Shown: positions 8,363 to 24,000, numbered from the stretch's first letter. The stretch: 24,000 nucleotides of DNA from Sporomusa sp. KB1 (GCF_007830295.1 NZ_VLKC01000002.1:3889546-3913545); one strand, 5' to 3'. Numbers and translations: made by a program. Notes: generated by a model not told the origin, from the letters alone.

Positions 8363-9109
8363 ATGCAGACCGCAGAACGCTTGAAAGCAGCTAGAAAGCG
8401 GCGCGCTTCTATATTGGCGTTGTGGCTGGCGGCGCTGATAGTATTAATAGCTATTTTTTTATTTATTAATTCTCCCTATTTTATTGTTGGGACAGTAGTG
8501 GTTGAGGGCAATAAATATGTAACTGTTGAAGAAGTGCTGCGAATAGCTGGAGTTCCAGAAAAAATAAATATCTTTAGACTAAAACCTGCAGAAATTAAAG
8601 AGCGGTTGACTAGTGATCTGCGTGTGGATGAGGTTAAGGTTGAGAGAAATTTTCCGGCTACGATTACTATTCATATCGAGGAACGCCAGCCGTTGGCTTT
8701 TGTTGCCAGTCAGTATGGTTTTGTAGAAATTGACCGGCAAGGTATAGTAATGGTTGCATTTAAAAACCTAAAGCAGGTAAAAGTGCCTGTTATTACTGGT
8801 GTTCGGTTGGGAAATGTTTATGTTGGCGATCAGATAAATAATCCGGGGCTTGCTAATGTTTTAACCTATTTATCCGAACTGGATGAAGGAGCATTAAACC
8901 AATTATCAGAAGTAAACATTAAATCACCGGATGAGCTTGTTGTTTACACTACAAATTCAGTTTGCATTCGGATTGGAGATAATCAGCGTCTCATAGAAAA
9001 AGCTAAGCTTACAGCTGAAATTTTACAGGAAATAGCTGCAAAAAAAATGGCTGTCGAGTATGTCGATCTAAACTATACCTCCCCAATTATTAAAATACGT
9101 AATAAATAG
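8363..9109 (+). CDS. ftsQ: Cell division protein FtsQ/DivIB (POTRA domain)
   Basis: RBS AGGAG. N-terminal basic region plus a single TM segment (ILALWLAALIVLIAIFLFI). A POTRA-like segment (VVEGNKYVTVEEVL...) follows. Conserved position upstream of ftsA. Confidence 0.85.
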   Translation: MQTAERLKAARKRRASILALWLAALIVLIAIFLFINSPYFIVGTVVVEGNKYVTVEEVLRIAGVPEKINIFRLKPAEIKERLTSDLRVDEVKVERNFPATITIHIEERQPLAFVASQYGFVEIDRQGIVMVAFKNLKQVKVPVITGVRLGNVYVGDQINNPGLANVLTYLSELDEGALNQLSEVNIKSPDELVVYTTNSVCIRIGDNQRLIEKAKLTAEILQEIAAKKMAVEYVDLNYTSPIIKIRNK

Positions 9110-16151: not shown

Positions 16152-17822
16152 TTATACTTCGACAACGCGCCTGATATTGCTGTGTGCTACAACGCTTTCT
16201 TCTACTGAATAAGTAGGAATTGCAGCACTGGCCATCTGTTGGATGGTAAGGGGAATGTTGGTTTTGGACAAAAACACTAACCGTTTGTCGTAATAGCGAA
16301 TTAGTTTGATCATCTTATAAAAACAGTCATGGCTGAATTTGCAGCGAACATTGGCAAAAATAATATCAGCATGGATGATAAGCGCTTCATCAAAGCCGTT
16401 TGCATCGCCGGAGAGATAAACAAAATTAGGTAGCTGGGTCTTTAACTTGGTTTGCCAATTTTCAGCACCGCCGATAACCAAGGCGTGAATGTTGCTTAAT
16501 GTGCTTAATGCTGCCTCGATATTGTAGTGTTGATTAGATGTTGCTAAATTTATAATATTATTAGAGTTTTCTATGTCTTTACTTTGTCTTCGGTGATTTT
16601 CCGCTTGCGTAAGCTTAGTTTGAAGTAGCTCAGTTTCTTTGCTTAAGGCATTCACCACGAACTTTTGTTTGAGAACCAAGGCGTTAAGCTCTTCTTCTTT
16701 TTGAGCCAGCAAATCGGTTTTGGCTGCCAAATCTGCACTCATCCTGCGAACTTCTATTTCGTAGGCTCGAAGTTGTTTTTTGAGATTATCCATTTCGGCA
16801 GATAGAAAAGGATTGTTTTGTTCAAAATAATATTTCCTCGTTTTTTTATACTCACGTATGAATTCGAGTAAACTTAAGCCGAACATTACAAACTCGGCAC
16901 ATTTTGATTCCAGATCCTCGTGGCTTTGCGTATGATTGGATCGGAATAATTCTGAGGTCATCTTTATAATATAGAGGCGACAAAGTAGCTCAACATCTCG
17001 TTCTTTAATCTTTGTCAAAATTTTTGGTGATGCCAAGGATAATCCTGTTGATGATGACAAATACGCGGTGCAGTGAGCCATTCCTTCCCAGAAATGGTCG
17101 CCGTTCCAGGGTTCAAGATAATTATAAAATACCTTTTGATATATCGCATTTTTAAGTTGACGGGCCATTTTTTTTATTGCTGGTTTATTCAGCCTGTTTT
17201 TTAATTGTTGAAAATCGCTGGTGTTATCAAGCTTGCTGGCAAGTGTTTGCACAACGAATAAAGTCTCAGGTTCTGGTATGATTGCTTTTTTGCCTAAAAC
17301 ACAGGTAATAAACATGGCGAATTTTAGGGAGGCATGAGGCGGTAAATCAATAGCTGGATACATTGCAATGAAATATTGAAGATATTGTATTGCGGCGCCA
17401 GTAAGAAGATTGTGGTATTGAACGTCTTTGTCGGATTCGGCATAATACTCTGGCTGAGCGGCTTTTGATAAATCAATTGTTTCGGCATTTTTAATATAGC
17501 CATACAGATTGCTCCAGCGTTTTGTCAGAATGCGTATTACCTGTTCGAATAAGGGAGAACAAGGGCCATCTTCCATAGCCACAAGCACCATGCCTAAGTA
17601 TTTTAAGGCATAAATTTGTCGATCAATGCCGCTGATAGTGAACAAAGGATGATTAGCATAAGAAGAATGAGAGGCTGCAGTCTGGTAACGAGTTTTATCG
17701 ATTTCATAAAGCAAGTCTATTTCTTTGTATGCTGATGATGTATCGGCAGCGAGCTGGACAAAAAGAGGGAGCGTATCAACCGGGATATTGTTGGCTACTA
17801 ATATGAAATCCGAAATCTTCAT
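16152..17822 (-). CDS. Hypothetical 556-aa protein: novel helical N-terminal region, central coiled coil, DUF2325-like C-terminal domain
   Basis: Long uninterrupted ORF with RBS GGATGGTGA upstream. Residues ~341-412 are heptad-rich (EMDNLKKQLRAYEIEVRR...ELLQTKLTQAENH). Residues ~446-530 (ALVIGGAENW...HADIIFANVRCKFSHDCFYKMIKL...LVFLSKTN) match my memory of the DUF2325 pattern (GG ... aD-hh ... sH ... k). No TM segment or signal peptide. Confidence 0.7.
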   Translation of the reverse strand: MKISDFILVANNIPVDTLPLFVQLAADTSSAYKEIDLLYEIDKTRYQTAASHSSYANHPLFTISGIDRQIYALKYLGMVLVAMEDGPCSPLFEQVIRILTKRWSNLYGYIKNAETIDLSKAAQPEYYAESDKDVQYHNLLTGAAIQYLQYFIAMYPAIDLPPHASLKFAMFITCVLGKKAIIPEPETLFVVQTLASKLDNTSDFQQLKNRLNKPAIKKMARQLKNAIYQKVFYNYLEPWNGDHFWEGMAHCTAYLSSSTGLSLASPKILTKIKERDVELLCRLYIIKMTSELFRSNHTQSHEDLESKCAEFVMFGLSLLEFIREYKKTRKYYFEQNNPFLSAEMDNLKKQLRAYEIEVRRMSADLAAKTDLLAQKEEELNALVLKQKFVVNALSKETELLQTKLTQAENHRRQSKDIENSNNIINLATSNQHYNIEAALSTLSNIHALVIGGAENWQTKLKTQLPNFVYLSGDANGFDEALIIHADIIFANVRCKFSHDCFYKMIKLIRYYDKRLVFLSKTNIPLTIQQMASAAIPTYSVEESVVAHSNIRRVVEV

Positions 17823-17870: not shown

Positions 17871-18230
17871 TTACACTACTTTTTTGGTAATACATTCGAC
17901 ACTTTCTATTTGGTAAGACGCGGCAATAGTCGTGCTTCGTTCGCCTTTGGCTGTCTGTATTGCCGCTTTGACTGCAAGCAGAGACTCCGTAATATTTTTT
18001 AGGTTGTTTGTTAACGTTACAAGGATATTAACATAGGTATCAAATGTATAGTCGTTCTTAGACAAGGTAGCTTCTTGAATGGCTTTATGGGTATCTACAA
18101 GGAGTTCTTGAAAGGCATGTTCAGAGTATTGTAAGTCAGTTAGTGTATAGCAACCGGGTTCATTGTCGGTTAGTAACATAATCTTCCCATTGGTTAAAAC
18201 ATCACTGTGATCATTGATTCGTGAATACAT
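17871..18230 (-). CDS. Hypothetical 119-aa protein, first gene of the operon with the 556-aa gene
   Basis: ORF with a strong RBS (AGGGAGGAAAAATT-ATG). It lies 48 nt upstream of the 556-aa gene on the same strand. No recognisable motif, TM segment or signal peptide. Confidence 0.6.
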   Translation of the reverse strand: MYSRINDHSDVLTNGKIMLLTDNEPGCYTLTDLQYSEHAFQELLVDTHKAIQEATLSKNDYTFDTYVNILVTLTNNLKNITESLLAVKAAIQTAKGERSTTIAASYQIESVECITKKVV

Positions 18231-18326: not shown

Positions 18327-18392
18327 ATAAATTCAAGCGAACGTAATAAAAGAACATAAAACAAGTGTAAAACTTTGCACTGCTTGAAATAT

Positions 18393-18487
18393 TGCTCCTT
18401 TCCAAAAGGGAGATATAGCCGTTTTCAGCTATACCGATCGGCCGGATACCATGCCACGAAAGGATTAGGTAAATCGGCTAAGGAGCA
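18393..18487 (-). promoter_or_regulatory. Candidate riboswitch aptamer; class unproven, some resemblance to the Moco/Tuco RNA motif
   Basis: On the minus strand an 8-bp closing helix, UGCUCCUU (18487-18480) / AAGGAGCA (18400-18393), encloses about 80 nt. Internal hairpins are GCCG..UACC / GGUA..CGGC (18478-18441) and UAUAGC-UGAAAACG-GCUAUA (18433-18414). The 3' strand also pairs with the terminator's 5' arm. Confidence 0.5.
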
Positions 18488-18567
18488 GACTATCTGATTA
18501 TGAAACTTTAACAAAGAGGTATTCGATAACGAAAACTAACATAAACAAACATGAATAATTAATTACT

Positions 18568-18699: not shown

Positions 18700-18729
18700 T
18701 TGCCAATATAAACAAACAAATACTATAAT
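18700..18729 (+). promoter_or_regulatory. Sigma-A-type promoter for the WtpA-like gene, with the shared motif in its spacer
   Basis: TTGCCA (18700-18705), an 18-nt spacer, then TATAAT (18724-18729). The spacer begins with AATATAAACAAACA (18705-18718). Confidence 0.55.
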
Positions 18730-18753: not shown

Positions 18754-19743
18754 ATGAATCGTAATTTAATGAAACTAATGGGTCTTTTTCTCTGCGTAGT
18801 ACTCATTGGACTGGGGCAACAAAGCAGTTTTGCCGAGGAGAGCCCAAACCACCCAATTACGGAGGTTATTGTCTTTCATGCTGGCAGTTTAAGCGGACCA
18901 TTCCAGAAAGCGGCCGAAGCTTATGAAAAATCTCATCCAGATATCAAAATCACTTTAGAAGGAAGTGGCAGCCGGGAAGCCGCCCGGAAAGTAACGGAAC
19001 TGAAGAGACCATGTGACGTGGTTGCTTCTGCTGACTATGAAACTATTGATAATTTAATGATGCCTGAATATGCAAAGTTTAATATATTTTTCGCCCGTAA
19101 TAAAACAGTTGTAGCCTTTACCGACAAAAGTAAGTATGCTAATGAGATTACCAGTGATAATTGGTATGATATTTTATCAAGGCCAGATGTGCAGTATGGT
19201 CATACTGATCCGAATTTGGATCCTGGCGGCTACCGGGCAGTTCTGACATTGCAGTTAGCCGAAAAATATTATCATAAACAGGGCTTGTATCAAGCGCTGG
19301 TAAATAATTTTCATGAGTCTAACACTGTCAATGATGGAAAAAGTATCAAAGAAATGCTGAATTCAGGTCGGTTGGATTACTTCTTCTTTTATGAATCGTC
19401 AGCCAAACAAGGCGGCTATCACTATATTACCTTGCCGGTTGAACTCGATTTTTCTTCCTTGGATTATGCGAACTATTACAAGCAAGCAACACTGTCGCTT
19501 AATGGCAAAAAAACAGGCAGCACTGAACAAGTTTACGGACAACCAATAATTTATGGCCTTACTCTGGTGAATAACGCCCCACATTCCAAGGAAGCGCTGC
19601 AATTCATACACTTTCTTCTGACAGATGGACAAAAATATTTAAATGATGCAGGTTTTATTTCTATGAATCCGTTAGTTCGCACCAGGGAATTGCCTTACAT
19701 CCCGGCAGAATTAAAAGATTTAGTAAAGCCGTTCAAACAATAA
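18754..19743 (+). CDS. Periplasmic tungstate/molybdate-binding protein, WtpA/ModA superfamily (orphan; no adjacent permease or ATPase)
   Basis: RBS AAGGGGG. Sec signal peptide (MNRNLMKLMGLFLCVVLIGLGQQSSFA). VFHAGSL...GSGS...VVASADY parallels the ModA blocks VFAAASL...SSG...FISAD. The HTDPNLDPGGYR block resembles the WtpA-type oxyanion-binding motif, recalled from memory. Confidence 0.82.
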   Translation: MNRNLMKLMGLFLCVVLIGLGQQSSFAEESPNHPITEVIVFHAGSLSGPFQKAAEAYEKSHPDIKITLEGSGSREAARKVTELKRPCDVVASADYETIDNLMMPEYAKFNIFFARNKTVVAFTDKSKYANEITSDNWYDILSRPDVQYGHTDPNLDPGGYRAVLTLQLAEKYYHKQGLYQALVNNFHESNTVNDGKSIKEMLNSGRLDYFFFYESSAKQGGYHYITLPVELDFSSLDYANYYKQATLSLNGKKTGSTEQVYGQPIIYGLTLVNNAPHSKEALQFIHFLLTDGQKYLNDAGFISMNPLVRTRELPYIPAELKDLVKPFKQ

Positions 19744-19952: not shown

Positions 19953-20420
19953 TTAGCCGTTACAGGTGCAAGCGTCACCGCAAGTACAACTGTCGCCGCA
20001 TGAACAACCGTCAGTATTTGCAATCATGCTATCATTTTTTGAAATACTTACTCCCGCTGCGGAAAGCTCTTCTTGTTTCTTCAATTTTTTATTGTAGTTG
20101 TTTATCCAGCCAAACACATCGTTCAAAATCGGTATAAAACTTTGTCCGATATCTGTTAATGAGTATTCGACTTTTGGCGGTACTTCTTTGTATATTTCTC
20201 TAAATACTATTCCGTCCCGTTCAAGTTCCCGTAACTGTTGTGTAAGTATTCCTTGTGAAATATCGGGTATTTGTTTTTGAAGTTCACTAAACCTTCTCGT
20301 TCCCTCGCTTAAACGCCAAAGAATTGTGAATTTCCATTTACCTGTGACTAACCTTTGGGCAACTGTTAGTGTTGCATTAGTCACTGGACAAAGACCTCTA
20401 AGGTTTTGTGCTTTGGTCAT
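19953..20420 (-). CDS. HxlR-family (DUF24) winged-helix transcriptional regulator with a C-terminal metallothionein-like Cys-rich tail
   Basis: Core [27 protein letters not shown]...[31 protein letters not shown].....[11 protein letters not shown] is the HxlR signature. An extra ~45 aa ends in [19 protein letters not shown], with six Cys arranged as three CxC pairs. Confidence 0.85.
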
Positions 20421-20517
20421 TTCAAATTGCTTCCTTTCTCAATGGTACTATAAATAGTAGTATGTCATATAAAAGTGCCTACTTGTATTTTTATTTATTA
20501 TATTATACCATTTTAGC

Positions 20518-20571
20518 AAATATAAACAAACATAGACAATAATTATAAGTCGTTTATGTTTGTTTATATTT
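20518..20571. promoter_or_regulatory. Perfect 17-bp inverted repeat; candidate operator in the divergent hxlR-like / HMA promoter region
   Basis: AAATATAAACAAACATA (20518-20534), a 20-nt spacer, then TATGTTTGTTTATATTT (20555-20571), an exact reverse complement. The left arm overlaps the -35 region of a minus-strand TGgTATAAT extended -10 (20510-20502). The right arm overlaps the -35 region of a plus-strand TATAGT (20581-20586). Confidence 0.65.
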
Positions 20572-20611
20572 GTAGATATTTATAGTTTGGCACAGGGAGG
20601 AAGTGAAGCTA

Positions 20612-20821
20612 ATGACTCAAACCAATCAAATTATCCTGAGAATTGAAGGTATGTCATGCAGTATGTGCAAAGGTAAAGTGGAAAAAGCACTTAAAAGTAT
20701 TTCAGGAGTAATAAACGTAAGTGTTGATTTGGAAACAAAGGAAGCCATTATTGGTGGCTTGGCTAATCCTGCAGCGCTTGTTAAAGCTGTTGAAGAAATT
20801 GGATTTAAAGTTAAAAACTAA
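20612..20821 (+). CDS. Heavy-metal-associated (HMA) domain protein, CopZ-like metallochaperone
   Basis: 69 aa with a ferredoxin-like HMA pattern and metal-binding loop GMSCSMC (MxCxxC). No signal peptide. I prefer the ATG at 20612 (RBS AGGGAGG 11 nt upstream) to the GTG at 20603. Confidence 0.85.
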   Translation: MTQTNQIILRIEGMSCSMCKGKVEKALKSISGVINVSVDLETKEAIIGGLANPAALVKAVEEIGFKVKN

Positions 20822-20861
20822 TATGCTTCACCACTTAGCACTATTCAAGAGGAGGGGGAAA

Positions 20862-23138
20862 ATGGCGAAAAACTTAACATGGAAACCATTTTGCAGTGTT
20901 ACACTTGCTATTGCCATGTTTCTATATGGAGCAGGTATTGCCGGGGCGGAAAATGCAGTGTCGCAATCAGACAGCACTCAGGTGTCCGAAGGTGATAAAC
21001 AGCAAAAACAGGATCAGGCAGCTGATAAGCAAGAACAGCACGAAAATAGTGATAGTTCGATTGCGGCGACTTCAACTGCGGCCAATGTTCCATTTACTGA
21101 GGTGGAGATTACTGCGGTGGAGGTTACTGCGGACAAGCAGAATAAACTGGCTATTGGCCAGCAACCCAACGCCGAAGGGATAAATAATTATGTAGTTACG
21201 AAAAGTTCTACCGGCAGTAAATCAGACGTTGCAAATAAGGATTTGCCGCAGTCGATTACGGTGGTCGGCCAAAAAATCATGAAGGAGCAAAATAATAAAA
21301 CAGTCGCCGATGCATTAACTAATGTGGCGGGGGTAACGGTAGCCCAAGCAGTTCCTAATTATTGGTACAACACAAGTTTTAATATCCGAGGTTTTGGTAA
21401 TGGTTTTTTGTCTGACAATGTATTTGTTAATGGGTTATGGGATCCGTGTATTTCAATGTCGGGATGGGTGGGAAATCTTGACCGTATCGAGGTATTAAAA
21501 GGTCCGGCCTCTGTACTGTACGGAAATGGTACGCCTGGAGGTTCAATCAACTATGTAACAAAAAAACCGTTGTCTGAACAGGCATTTACCTTGGGCACGG
21601 AGTTCGGCTCATGGGGATCCAAATCGACTGATATTGATATGTCCATTCCGCTAACTGATGATAAAAAATGGCTGTCCCGGACTATTATTCAGAATGCTGA
21701 TAATCATTCTTTTCAAAAGGACGTTAAATTCAAACGTTTCGACGGCAGCGTAATTGTGCAAGGCCAACCCCGGCAAGATACTGTGTACACTTTTGAAGTA
21801 CAGTTTCATGATCACGATGGTCCAACTGTTGGATTGCTGCCACTTACCGGTACAATAAATTCCCCCTATAATCTAGTTCCTTACGATGGGAATTATTATA
21901 ATCCAAATATAAAATTACATTATATAGGGCGCAGTATTTCGGCACAAATCGATCACCAGTTTAATAGTATTTGGTCCATCCGTTCGGCCTTCCGATATAG
22001 CAATGAAACCACAAATTTCTATTCGCAAGGAGGGTCGACTCTGAATCTCGATAATCTTACAGTCAATCAAGTTTGGCAGCATAGACTGATGCGCACCAGC
22101 GTTTATGCGTGGGATACGGCAGCAAATGCCAAATTTACTGCTTGGGGGCTTAAACACGATTTGACATTTGGTTTTGACTGGGCCCAATTTGATCAAAAAA
22201 TCCCCTATTATTATCGGGGCAATTTACCCAGCGTTTCGTTGTACAATCCTATTTTCACCAGCTCATTACCAACGAGGATTATGAATCCAATGAATAACTA
22301 TCATTCTTGGAGCAATCGATATGGGAGCTACATATCGGACATAATGGAACTTTCGCCCAAATTTAAGGTTGCTACAGGGGCAAGCTTTACCACTTTGGAT
22401 GGTGTCAGCAGCCATGATTCTGGCAAAGATTGGCGGGTCGGGGCGACCTATGAATTAACTCCAGGAGTTACCTTATTTACCGGCTACTCCACATCCTACG
22501 AACCACAAGGCTCTAAGCTTAGTGGTACTAAAACGATTTACTTTGAACCTGAAACCGGTAATCAGATCGAGGGCGGTTTGAAGGTAGATATAAGTAATCG
22601 CGCAAGTGTTACGTTAGCAAATTACCGGATCAATCGTGAAGATATGGTCTACGCTATTCCCGGAACGAACCCGCAAGAATATGAACAAATTGGCAAGCAA
22701 ACCAGCAAAGGGTTCGAACTTGATGCTAGCTACGTACTTCGTCCAGGCTGGAATCTGCTGGTCGCTTATTCTCATTGTGACGCTCGCGTAGTAAAAGACG
22801 CTACCTATAGTTCAGGCAGCGTGCTTCCCAATGTGCCGCTTAACTCCTTTAAACTTTGGAGTACATACGAATTTCAAGAAGGGCCTTGTAAAGGGCTGGG
22901 TTTTGGCGGCGGTTTGACTCGTGTCGGCAGCCGCGCAGTCGATTATGATAATAGCTTAGGTTGGATGGATGGCTATACTACGATTGACGCCGAAATACAT
23001 TACAAAATCAAAGATTGGCGTTACTCCCTCAACCTATATAATTTGACTAATGAGAAGTATTGGGCGTTAGGCAGTTCTAGTGGTGTTTACGCGGGAACAC
23101 CTAGAAGTTATACTTTGCGCGTAGAAAAGTCATTTTAA
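20862..23138 (+). CDS. TonB-dependent outer-membrane receptor (siderophore/metallophore-receptor type)
   Basis: RBS GAGGAGGGGG then ATG at 20862. Signal peptide (...AIAMFLYGAGIAGA-ENA). Plug-domain motifs TKSSTGSKSDVANKDLPQSITVV, NVAGVTV, IRGF, IEVLKGPASVLYG and PGGSINYVTKKP. A beta-barrel-like repeat region follows, with the terminal aromatic ...YTLRVEKSF. The ORF-track start at 20721 overlaps the HMA gene and lacks an RBS. Confidence 0.9.
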   Translation: MAKNLTWKPFCSVTLAIAMFLYGAGIAGAENAVSQSDSTQVSEGDKQQKQDQAADKQEQHENSDSSIAATSTAANVPFTEVEITAVEVTADKQNKLAIGQQPNAEGINNYVVTKSSTGSKSDVANKDLPQSITVVGQKIMKEQNNKTVADALTNVAGVTVAQAVPNYWYNTSFNIRGFGNGFLSDNVFVNGLWDPCISMSGWVGNLDRIEVLKGPASVLYGNGTPGGSINYVTKKPLSEQAFTLGTEFGSWGSKSTDIDMSIPLTDDKKWLSRTIIQNADNHSFQKDVKFKRFDGSVIVQGQPRQDTVYTFEVQFHDHDGPTVGLLPLTGTINSPYNLVPYDGNYYNPNIKLHYIGRSISAQIDHQFNSIWSIRSAFRYSNETTNFYSQGGSTLNLDNLTVNQVWQHRLMRTSVYAWDTAANAKFTAWGLKHDLTFGFDWAQFDQKIPYYYRGNLPSVSLYNPIFTSSLPTRIMNPMNNYHSWSNRYGSYISDIMELSPKFKVATGASFTTLDGVSSHDSGKDWRVGATYELTPGVTLFTGYSTSYEPQGSKLSGTKTIYFEPETGNQIEGGLKVDISNRASVTLANYRINREDMVYAIPGTNPQEYEQIGKQTSKGFELDASYVLRPGWNLLVAYSHCDARVVKDATYSSGSVLPNVPLNSFKLWSTYEFQEGPCKGLGFGGGLTRVGSRAVDYDNSLGWMDGYTTIDAEIHYKIKDWRYSLNLYNLTNEKYWALGSSSGVYAGTPRSYTLRVEKSF
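21102..21131 (+). repeat. Tandem 15-bp duplication inside the receptor gene, encoding VEITA-VEVTA
   Basis: GTGGAGATTACTGCG (21102-21116) is followed directly by GTGGAGGTTACTGCG (21117-21131), with one mismatch. Confidence 0.8.
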
Positions 23139-23178
23139 AATGTATGATAGTTAACTATTTCGAAGGAGCAACTTAAAA

Positions 23179-24000
23179 GTGACCGCTCAATCAAAAACAT
23201 TTTATCAAGAATTGTGGCACATCGTCCGTCCCTTTTGGCGGTCGAGGGAAGGCAGGATAGCAGCGGCAATGCTGTTAGGAGTGCTAATCCTGATTATTTT
23301 TCGTCTCTATGTAAGTGTTCTGATAAATGAATGGCAAAAACTTTTCTTTAATGCCATTCATTTATTGAATGCCGCTGAGTGTATCCACCAGCTTTTCCGA
23401 TTTGCGGGCTTGTCGCTGCTGTTTTTGCCGTTGCTTGGCTGTCAGAAATATTTACGGGGGCTTGTGCAAATTCGCTGGCGGCAATGGTTATCGGAACGCT
23501 ATGCTGAGAAACTGCTGAAAAACCGGAATTATTACCGTTTACAGTATGCATCAGGCGATACTGATAATCTTGATCAGCGTATTGCTGAGGATTTGCGGAT
23601 TTTTCCCGTGGAGACCATCAACATGATTTTTGGTTTTATTGATGCGATGGGATCACTTGCGGCATTTTCTGTTATATTGTGGAATTCGCCGGGATCACCG
23701 GAGGTAGCCGGCCTGGAAATTACTGGCTTTCTATTTTGGCTGGCTTTATTCTTTTCGTTAGCCGGTACATGGGTCAATCACCTTATGGGGAAAATTCTCA
23801 GTGTTTTTAACCGGGAACAACAGAAATATGAAGCTAATTATCGGTTTTCCCTAGTCCGGCTCCGAGAAAATGCTGAGGCTATTGCCGCATACGGTGGCGA
23901 ATGCCGGGAAATGGAAGCCCTCGCTGATCGGTTTGGTAGTATCGCCGGGGTATGGCAGAATATTTTGCGCCGGAATAGGATACTGGACTGGTTTTTCAGT
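23179..24000 (+). CDS. YddA-like ABC transporter (ABC_membrane_2 / SbmA-BacA-type TMD fused to an ATPase), 3'-truncated by the window edge
   Basis: Not in the ORF track, because it starts at a GTG and has no stop within the window. GTG at 23179 has RBS GAAGGAG 10 nt upstream, and the frame stays open for 274 codons to base 24000. Blocks LINEWQKLFFNAI, IRWRQWLSERY, NYYRLQY and DNLDQRIAEDLRIF match E. coli YddA (WLNDWNNDFFNAL, IRWREWLTDYY, NYYFTQIY, DNPDQRIAEDILL), recalled from memory. Confidence 0.82.
   Translation, partial: MTAQSKTFYQELWHIVRPFWRSREGRIAAAMLLGVLILIIFRLYVSVLINEWQKLFFNAIHLLNAAECIHQLFRFAGLSLLFLPLLGCQKYLRGLVQIRWRQWLSERYAEKLLKNRNYYRLQYASGDTDNLDQRIAEDLRIFPVETINMIFGFIDAMGSLAAFSVILWNSPGSPEVAGLEITGFLFWLALFFSLAGTWVNHLMGKILSVFNREQQKYEANYRFSLVRLRENAEAIAAYGGECREMEALADRFGSIAGVWQNILRRNRILDWFFS

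Follow-up and report, generated by a model that had tools for sequence, protein, structure and literature searches.

Which ligand is taken up by an operon in which the gene of a cytoplasmic metallochaperone with an HMA domain stands directly in front of the gene of an outer-membrane TonB-dependent receptor (TBDR)? This question is raised by a 24,000-nt stretch (hereafter the window) of the 6.06-Mb genome of Sporomusa sp. KB1 (contig C1:3889546-3913545), where the HMA and receptor genes are followed by that of a YddA-type ATP-binding cassette (ABC) protein. A sequence-only reading of the window had held that the substrate of such a system cannot be read from the sequence. This view was too pessimistic, since riboswitches in Sporomusa ovata and an operator shared with wtpA, the gene of a tungstate-binding protein, point to tungsten (W) and molybdenum (Mo). 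The operon probably belongs to the W/Mo homeostasis regulon of Sporomusa, and on balance it is best understood as a system for the TonB-dependent import of a W/Mo-bearing ligand.

The three co-oriented genes and their identities, as first described, are borne out by open reading frame (ORF) calls and domain searches, and the gaps between them (20822-20861 and 23139-23178) are each of exactly 40 nt. Beyond position 24,000, where coordinates are extrapolated from the downstream sequence L003, the ATPase domain of the ABC protein is complete (full ABC_tran domain) and the operon continues with a DUF364 gene, preceded by a gap of 82 nt and provided with its own ribosome-binding site (RBS), before it ends at a strong terminator; the tonB, exbBD or protease genes that might have been expected there are absent. 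No convincing terminator was found inside the operon. As the sequence-only reading had stated, the M16 protease (PqqL) is missing, both from the HxlR gene to the operon terminator and in the annotated flanks. The operon consists of:

20612-20821, plus strand: HMA/CopZ-like metallochaperone of 69 amino acids (aa) (PF00403, motif GMSCSMC)
20862-23138, plus strand: TBDR of the siderophore type, 758 aa (plug and barrel domains, TIGR01783)
23179-24000, plus strand: YddA/Rv1819c-type ABC protein, fused transmembrane and nucleotide-binding domains, residues 1-274 in the window (PF06472, PF05992, PF00005)
to extrapolated 24885 (L003 5179-6885), plus strand: full ABC gene, 568 aa, completed in the sequence downstream of the window
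extrapolated 24968-25699 (L003 6968-7699), plus strand: fourth operon gene, DUF364-fold protein, 243 aa (PF04016)
extrapolated 25802-25843 (L003 7802-7843): intrinsic terminator closing the operon, 18-pair stem and T-run

The tie to tungsten and molybdenum is most direct in S. ovata DSM 2662, which has four receptor copies, all of them downstream of a riboswitch of the molybdenum cofactor (Moco) class (RF01055). At the first locus, the HMA gene is separated by the riboswitch (65 bits) from a downstream unit in the order RsmG-like, DUF364, RsmG-like, receptor, RsmG-like, receptor, YddA, TonB, ExbBD; at the second, two riboswitches (58 and 57 bits) stand directly 5' of two receptor units. Because there are only 17 RF01055 matches in the 5.4 Mb of this genome, three chance placements before receptor units are not credible. 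The alignment printed for one of the S. ovata aptamers shows no stem P3, and the remaining two are equally short (116-117 nt); the P3-less aptamer class correlates with tungsten-cofactor genes (Regulski 2008, PMC2408646), in a paper in which 'TonB' and 'outer membrane' have 0 occurrences.

In KB1, the tie is found in the promoter of the operon and in its neighbours, namely:

20517-20572: 21-nt inverted repeat (arms 20517-20537 and 20552-20572) with the core ATAAACAAACA, overlapping promoter-like -35 and -10 hexamers
20445-20486: conserved box beside the HxlR start, GTACTATA..AGTATGTCATA..AAGTGCsTACTTG, candidate HxlR site
19953-20420, minus strand: divergent HxlR-family regulator, 155 aa, with a C-terminal Cys-rich tail (PF01638, E 4.8e-32)
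18754-19743, plus strand: orphan wtpA, tungstate-binding protein (TIGR03730, 307 bits for a cut-off of 243)
18379-18497, minus strand: riboswitch of the Moco/tungsten cofactor (Tuco) class heading the adjacent minus-strand operon (RF01055, 52.6 bits, E 6e-10)

The hexamers under the inverted repeat are TAGACA (-35, 20533-20538) and TATGTT (-10, 20555-20560). The exact 11-mer core has 9 copies in the whole genome, four of which are clustered within 2 kb here: two at the HMA promoter, one at the wtpA promoter (18704-18714, between -35 TTGCCA and -10 TATAAT) and one in the promoter region of the riboswitch-led operon. The 21-nt inverted repeat is conserved in Sporomusa acidovorans and in the orthologous loci L027 and L045, and a related decamer-periodic box precedes, in the KB1 genome, a regulator gene (C1:5115029-5115982) with HTH_17 and PBP_like domains, which is the architecture of TaoR (PMC11980592). 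A search for pairs of inverted-repeat boxes over the whole genome hit a fusion of PAS-GGDEF-HD-GYP with a ModA-like domain, TonB, FecCD, a CobW-like GTPase and unrelated genes; given this mixed gene set and the AT-rich motif, only the clustering of exact copies is used.

The gene content of the operons points in the same direction. A DUF364 gene is part of the operon in KB1, in the metagenome-assembled genome (MAG) CTSoil_075 and in S. ovata, whose locus also has three genes of RsmG-like methyltransferases dependent on S-adenosylmethionine (SAM), while the S. acidovorans operon encodes ModD (TIGR01334, 241 bits for a cut-off of 179) and a TrmO_N-FmdE protein. On the side of iron, Fur boxes (7-1-7 and 19-mer) were sought together with Zur and PerR boxes, using consensus sequences of other bacteria, and in 13 orthologous upstream regions none scored better than in shuffled sequence, so that control by Fur, Zur or PerR was rejected. 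It is this set of features (the S. ovata riboswitches, the operator shared with wtpA, ModD, the DUF364 context and the lack of a Fur box) that argues for W/Mo supply rather than iron supply. The operon thus resembles the Moco/Tuco riboswitch regulon (modABC, tupABC, wtpABC and moa genes, with control of the ModE or TaoR type), in that the S. ovata receptor units likewise lie behind RF01055 aptamers and the KB1 promoter shares its operator core with wtpA and a riboswitch-led operon; it differs in that the regulon, as known, comprises ABC transporters of the inner membrane and their binding proteins together with biosynthesis and W/Mo enzymes, and no TBDR among its members turned up in the literature searched.

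Conservation across genomes shows which parts belong together. Receptor orthologs at E <= 1e-120 are found in 12 of 401 genomes sampled from the class (KB1 included), spread over five GTDB families. A search within the family of KB1 gave orthologs with 45-70% identity in seven of 19 further genomes. An HMA gene or fragment lies immediately 5' of the receptor gene at all 14 orthologous loci of these 12 genomes, whereas none of the ~14 other TBDR-like matches in the KB1 genome has an HMA neighbour, which means that the arrangement is not due to chance. A YddA-type gene follows at every sufficiently long locus except the second S. ovata locus. Two lineages of YddA proteins, ~39% identical to each other, are used across the loci, and with two distinct lineages recruited the pairing of receptor and YddA protein appears to have been selected and not merely inherited. 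In most loci, tonB-exbB-exbD lie between or after the receptor and YddA genes; in KB1 they are elsewhere in the genome. No substrate-binding protein (SBP) gene is present in any of the 14 operons, which fits import by the ABC protein independently of a binding protein.

Some loci depart from this scheme. The second S. ovata locus (C1:3875000-3894999; L025 6900-15800) consists of two degenerate repeats of the module without a YddA gene, each with an HMA fragment (residues 1-31 or 1-41), a Moco riboswitch, an intact receptor gene and RsmG-like genes or fragments, and between the repeats there is a group II intron (RF02005), which has an ORF of 611 aa. At the second locus of Sporomusa silvacetica, two to three tandem HMA copies lie 5' of the receptor gene (L030 7549-8237) and two genes of the nitrogenase-component-1 type (Oxidored_nitro) lie 3' of the YddA gene (L030 15756-18656). 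More remote relatives of the receptor, from Rhodoblastus and Nostoc (31-33% identity), have no HMA or YddA neighbours and were set aside. Genes of mobile elements flank the module, namely a Rep3-type initiator, a DDE transposase and a serine recombinase (L024 16923-17765; L032 14656-16386; L003 9465-10946); these flanks and the patchy occurrence of the module (12 of 401 genomes) suggest horizontal spread. In KB1, the operon terminator is followed by ytaF and a serine recombinase and then by nrdR/nrdD, so that the module sits in a variable stretch bounded by conserved blocks. The dcw/ftsAZ cluster and spoIIGA-sigE-sigG-spoIIR, also in the window, mark the host as a sporulating diderm Firmicute.

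The HMA protein (PF00403, E 5.5e-16, 59 bits) combines a single HMA domain with a GMxCxxC motif and has no signal peptide, which are the characters of the CopZ/Atx1 type and from which a cytoplasmic location is deduced. The GM[SA]CxxC signature is present in 13 of 13 aligned orthologs. A translated search (tblastn) of the KB1 genome gave only two sites, the operon gene and a CopZ gene adjoining that of CopA, whose product is 57% identical to the operon protein. Fold, motif and size are thus those of the CopZ proteins of CopZ-CopA pairs; however, the operon protein scores slightly below the NCBIfam cut-off for CopZ (NF047957, CopZ_AFE_1862; 80.2 bits for a cut-off of 85), neither the KB1 locus nor any orthologous locus contains a P1B-type or other P-type ATPase gene, and the HMA gene is always 5' of that of an outer-membrane importer. 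The metallochaperone that the sequence-only reading saw as a gain beside a receptor/YddA pair is supported: a cytoplasmic CxxC protein is tightly coupled to the import operon, its gene or a fragment of it adjoining the receptor gene at 14 of 14 loci. The divergently transcribed HxlR gene, proposed earlier as a metal-sensing regulator, is also real. Its ortholog is divergent from the HMA gene at eight of 13 loci, and the metallothionein-like Cys-rich tail of its product is retained in S. acidovorans, L027, the MAG locus L045 and S. ovata. The HxlR-side box is nearly identical in four type-A leaders (KB1, L026, L027 and L045), and binding of HxlR to this box (20445-20486) is inferred. HxlR is probably not the sole regulator, as the large inverted repeat resembles the boxes of W/Mo genes.

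The receptor has a Sec-type signal peptide, a strong RBS (GAGGAGGGGG) before its gene and a low-complexity N-terminal extension of ~90 aa, and it matches the plug (PF07715, 71.6 bits) and barrel (PF00593, 166.8 bits) domains. With 269.9 bits for a cut-off of 223.5 it falls within the siderophore-type subfamily TIGR01783, and its closest solved structures are FetA, CntO, FoxA and FhuA, at roughly equal distances (E 1e-46 to 1e-56). By these sequence matches it is a member of the FhuA/FoxA/CntO/FetA siderophore-type subfamily. It reaches no equivalog cut-off among those for FhuA, FoxA, FhuE, Fiu, FauA, PqqU and BtuB (FhuA, 236 bits for 803; FoxA, 179 bits for 1300). With the characterized members it shares the plug and the 22-strand barrel, and also TonB-ExbBD encoded nearby in relatives of the KB1 operon; it differs in having as partners an HMA protein and a YddA-type ABC protein instead of a FhuBCD- or Cnt-type permease, and in its control, with no Fur box found and the S. 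ovata orthologs under Moco-class riboswitches.

The ABC protein contains the domains ABC_membrane_2 (PF06472, 161 bits), SbmA_BacA (PF05992, 91 bits) and ABC_tran (PF00005, 71 bits), with Walker A, signature and Walker B motifs intact. It is homologous over its full length to YddA/Rv1819c-type importers, in which an SbmA-like transmembrane domain is fused to an ATPase: the closest solved relative is the Mycobacterium tuberculosis importer Rv1819c (6TQE, E 3.4e-85), followed by ABCD-type proteins including the cobalamin transporter ABCD4. The comparison with the E. coli yddA-yddB-pqqL system, drawn in the sequence-only reading, holds for this protein (32% identity to YddA over 551 aa) and fails for the receptor, since BLASTP against E. 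coli YddB gave E 0.37, so that the two receptors share no more than the superfamily and a YddB-like receptor was rejected. Common to both systems are a true ABC homolog with ABC_membrane_2 and ABC_tran domains, an adjacent TBDR gene and the lack of an encoded periplasmic binding protein. Here, in contrast, there is no M16 protease, HMA and DUF364 genes are added, the receptor gene precedes the ABC gene, and regulation is linked to W/Mo rather than to Fur. The proposal of a receptor/YddA import architecture can be maintained in the form of a conserved import-type operon that pairs a receptor with an SBP-independent ABC protein, the direction of transport being presumed from homology. Rv1819c (BacA), SbmA and ABCD4 are alike in being exporter-fold, SBP-independent importers of bulky hydrophilic compounds, but Rv1819c works without an outer-membrane receptor operon and has no tie to metal regulators. 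For ubonodin, a preprint (10.1101/2022.03.09.483586) reports that PupB serves as the receptor and YddA as the importer in the inner membrane. Cobalamin, considered because Rv1819c and ABCD4 carry vitamin B12, was discarded as a substrate, no cobalamin riboswitch being found in the loci scanned at Rfam gathering thresholds.

The fourth protein matches PF04016 (27.2 bits for a cut-off of 23), and nearly all of its 2,197 homologs carry this domain. Searches of the Protein Data Bank by sequence gave no match, either with the protein itself or with a profile, and only fold comparison succeeded: an AlphaFold2 model (pLDDT 83, the model's own confidence measure) is closest to 3NPG (E 3e-7) and 3L5O (E 1.6e-5), both with a probability of 1.00. 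These are the two solved DUF364 structures, and the model has their two-domain fold, enolase-N-like and Rossmann-like. Cyclization of SAM derivatives is the chemistry of nicotianamine-type metallophores. Orf5, the sole characterized DUF364 enzyme, forms an azetidine amino acid by cyclizing a SAM derivative (PMC12930334). The family has been placed in the context of molybdate, tungstate and vanadium transporters, and action on pterin- or flavin-like molecules has been proposed in the structure paper (PMC2954201); in M. maripaludis, a gene of this family is part of a modABC operon co-fit with nifH (10.1101/2024.03.05.583561). In KB1, a paralog of the DUF364 protein (72%) ends an orange-protein-type cluster (C1:3606525-3610923, minus strand; L041 6525-10923), which encodes two MinD-like ATPases with Fer4 domains, a NifX-like protein and MrpORP (NF041136, 537 bits), with a Crp-family regulator gene upstream. 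A Mo-Cu cluster is present in the Desulfovibrio orange protein, according to references given in PMC6345978.

Eight of 13 loci have a different, type-B leader, composed of GCTGATTAG, a short spacer, CTAAAGGCC and a covarying terminator hairpin (TGATTAG/terminator motif). It was rejected as a W/Mo-specific RNA, for 23 copies stand before many unrelated operons in the KB1 genome; being common genome-wide and also placed before other receptors, the motif carries no W/Mo information. As an observation in its own right, the motif reads (G)GCTGAT[TC]AG, 3-10 nt, CT[AG]AAGGC, covarying GC hairpin, T-run, with the palindromic core CTGATCAG, and lies shortly 3' of promoter-like hexamers, 60-490 nt before the next ORF. 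There are 2-23 copies per genome, with 0 matches to the reversed control pattern, and besides the HMA operon at eight loci many further operons follow such a copy, as do a Crp-like gene and several TBDR genes outside the module (L028 ~8640-8760, L029-L032, L053, L073 and L074; in KB1, C1:2851984, C1:3021449 and C1:758090 among the 23). The motif matches no Rfam family and is a candidate for a new attenuator or antitermination signal.

Further observations concern the surroundings of the KB1 riboswitch and operator. The riboswitch-led minus-strand operon encodes proteins of 119 aa (17871-18230) and 556 aa (16152-17822) without significant Pfam match; the former has three paralogs in the genome (60-70% identity), one of them directly behind a Moco riboswitch (C1:883023). 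The fusion protein mentioned above is encoded on a second contig (C2:139095-141275, minus strand; L033 1096-3276) and joins, in 726 aa, PAS-GGDEF-HD-GYP domains to a ModA/WtpA-like SBP_bac_11 domain. At 230 nt 5' of its gene there is a box-type inverted repeat (ATAAACAAACT, 33 nt, AGTTTGTTTAT), with a sub-threshold RF01055 match nearby (C2:142310). Through this fusion, a link between W/Mo sensing and cyclic di-GMP is possible. Many matches on C2 occur twice, 701,564 bases apart (for example 55760/757324 and 130216/831780), and it seems that the first ~137 kb of this 839-kb contig recur at its end, which is what overlapping assembly of a circular replicon of ~702 kb would produce.

Three other explanations compete with import of a W/Mo-bearing ligand. 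According to one of them, a thiophilic cation, Cu(I) or Ni/Co/Zn, would be imported in chelated form, given to the CopZ-like HMA protein and sensed by the Cys-tailed HxlR, and the W/Mo tie would be indirect, reflecting for example the antagonism of copper with thiomolybdate or thiotungstate or the need of cofactor-dependent enzymes for the metal. This is the strict version of the metal-chelate uptake advanced by the sequence-only reading; the import-type operon and the coupled chaperone of that reading are supported, but this version is kept as a rival that we consider rather unlikely. It accounts well for the canonical GMxCxxC motif of the HMA protein and its 57% identity to the CopZ of the genome, for the metallothionein-like tail of HxlR, for the presence of CntO, a pseudopaline (Zn/Ni/Co) receptor, among the best solved receptor relatives, and for the S. 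ovata HMA gene, which has its own terminator and sits 5' of the riboswitch, not behind it. For a Cu, Ni or Zn importer, however, Moco-class riboswitches, ModD and an operator shared with wtpA are hard to explain, no element of the CsoR/CopY, NikR or Zur type was found, the box scan of the 13 upstream regions covering, of these, Zur, which did not exceed shuffled sequence, and only fragments of the HMA gene are left at the second S. ovata locus, where receptors and riboswitches are intact. Ordinary uptake of ferric siderophores (xenosiderophores), in which the HMA gene would be incidental and gene shuffling on a mobile island would have brought the module into the vicinity of W/Mo genes, is quite improbable. 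The receptor does pass the TIGR01783 cut-off, with FhuA, FoxA and FetA among its best matches, exporter-fold ABC importers of siderophores such as IrtAB and YbtPQ exist, and the distribution is patchy, with mobile genes nearby (a serine recombinase here; Rep3, transposase and group II intron in relatives). But no Fur box rises above chance in the 13 promoters, three Moco-class riboswitches lie directly on S. ovata receptor transcripts, ModD and DUF364 are encoded in the operon (ModD in S. acidovorans), and the HMA gene adjoins the receptor gene at 14 of 14 loci and no other TBDR gene in the genome. Among the outcomes that would refute it, the sequence-only reading had named a receptor of a Fur-controlled ferric-siderophore clade without link to the HMA protein; the 14 adjacent HMA genes and the upstream regions free of Fur boxes above the shuffled level speak otherwise.

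In the last of these explanations, the substrate would not be a metal but a pterin cofactor or precursor (Moco, Tuco, molybdopterin or cyclic pyranopterin monophosphate), salvaged from outside by the receptor and the large-cavity Rv1819c-type importer; the riboswitch would then exert end-product feedback, and DUF364, ModD and FmdE-like proteins would process the cofactor. Control by the cofactor itself through a riboswitch suits this idea, which we nevertheless hold to be improbable: Moco and Tuco are very labile outside proteins, we know of no bacterial importer of either, and the HMA protein is left unexplained. As to the partners, Rv1819c/ABCD4-type transporters carry bulky hydrophilic cofactors such as cobalamin (PMC3603451), and DUF364 has been proposed to act on pterin- or flavin-like molecules (PMC2954201), but the sole characterized DUF364 enzyme uses a SAM derivative and not a pterin (PMC12930334).

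Import of a W/Mo-bearing ligand, the preferred explanation, has also to face several points that weigh against it. RF01055 is absent from the leader of the KB1 operon, the match at 18379-18497 lying ~2 kb upstream and on the opposite strand; the other Moco riboswitches of the KB1 genome do not precede any receptor, ABC, DUF364 or ModD homolog. The riboswitch link is seen only in S. ovata, with none within the fetched loci of the other 11 genomes, and the type-B leader, present at eight of 13 loci, is the unspecific element described above. Control of the KB1 operator by a W/Mo sensor, for which a TaoR-like protein is a candidate, is suggested by motif similarity alone. HMA proteins with a CxxC motif classically bind Cu(I), Hg, Cd or Zn and, to our knowledge, do not bind oxyanions. 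The nearest characterized relatives of the receptor carry ferric siderophores or Zn/Ni/Co-pseudopaline, and no chelator biosynthesis pathway is recognizable at the KB1 operon.

With these points in mind, a mechanism for the import of a W/Mo-bearing ligand can be outlined. Its observed basis is the gene content with its conservation, the protein families and the regulatory elements; the substrate, the direction of transport and the parts played by the HMA and DUF364 proteins are inferences. Scarcity of the W/Mo cofactor or oxyanion would free the promoter, by way of the inverted-repeat operator and the HxlR box in KB1 and of the P3-less riboswitches in S. ovata, and the HxlR box (20445-20486) with the Cys tail of HxlR may supply a second, thiol-based input. 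A W/Mo-bearing ligand of siderophore size, such as a metallophore-type chelate, would be bound at the cell surface by the FhuA-like receptor, as its family suggests, and TonB-ExbBD would power its passage across the outer membrane. The exporter-fold ABC protein, presumably a homodimer, would then bring the ligand into the cytoplasm without a binding protein, in accordance with its homology to Rv1819c and YddA. There, the DUF364 enzyme might make or dismantle the ligand, possibly joined in relatives by ModD, TrmO-FmdE and RsmG-like enzymes, and the CxxC HMA protein could buffer or pass on a thiophilic species arriving with the ligand, perhaps Cu(I) or a thiometallate. More speculatively, the operon may represent an energized outer-membrane route for W (and/or Mo) in diderm Firmicutes, with a thiometallate, a Cu-thiometallate or a SAM-derived 'tungstophore' made with the aid of DUF364 as possible ligands and with the CxxC HMA protein and the Cys-tailed HxlR as cytoplasmic acceptor and sensor of the thio-species; as a whole this is a tentative proposal.

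Passage of tungstate and molybdate through the outer membrane is generally taken to be passive, with capture by ModA, TupA or WtpA as the next step. A TonB-dependent module regulated by the cofactor would add an energized first step to this uptake. The component families are known, but their combination is new in the literature searched, in which no such W/Mo uptake route, no coupling of an HMA protein to an importer and no control of a TBDR by a Moco-class riboswitch were found. If the proposal is true, a TonB-dependent system for W/Mo uptake and an HMA chaperone in the service of an importer would each be the first of their kind. With its four receptor copies, all behind Moco-class riboswitches, S. 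ovata DSM 2662 allows a direct test of the prediction. A physiological setting would be given to uncharacterized YddA-type ABC proteins and DUF364 enzymes, and a CopZ-like protein would be placed on the side of import. For Sporomusa, acetogens that rely on W/Mo formate dehydrogenases and aldehyde oxidoreductases and that are used in microbial electrosynthesis, this reliance and this use give the supply of trace metals practical weight.

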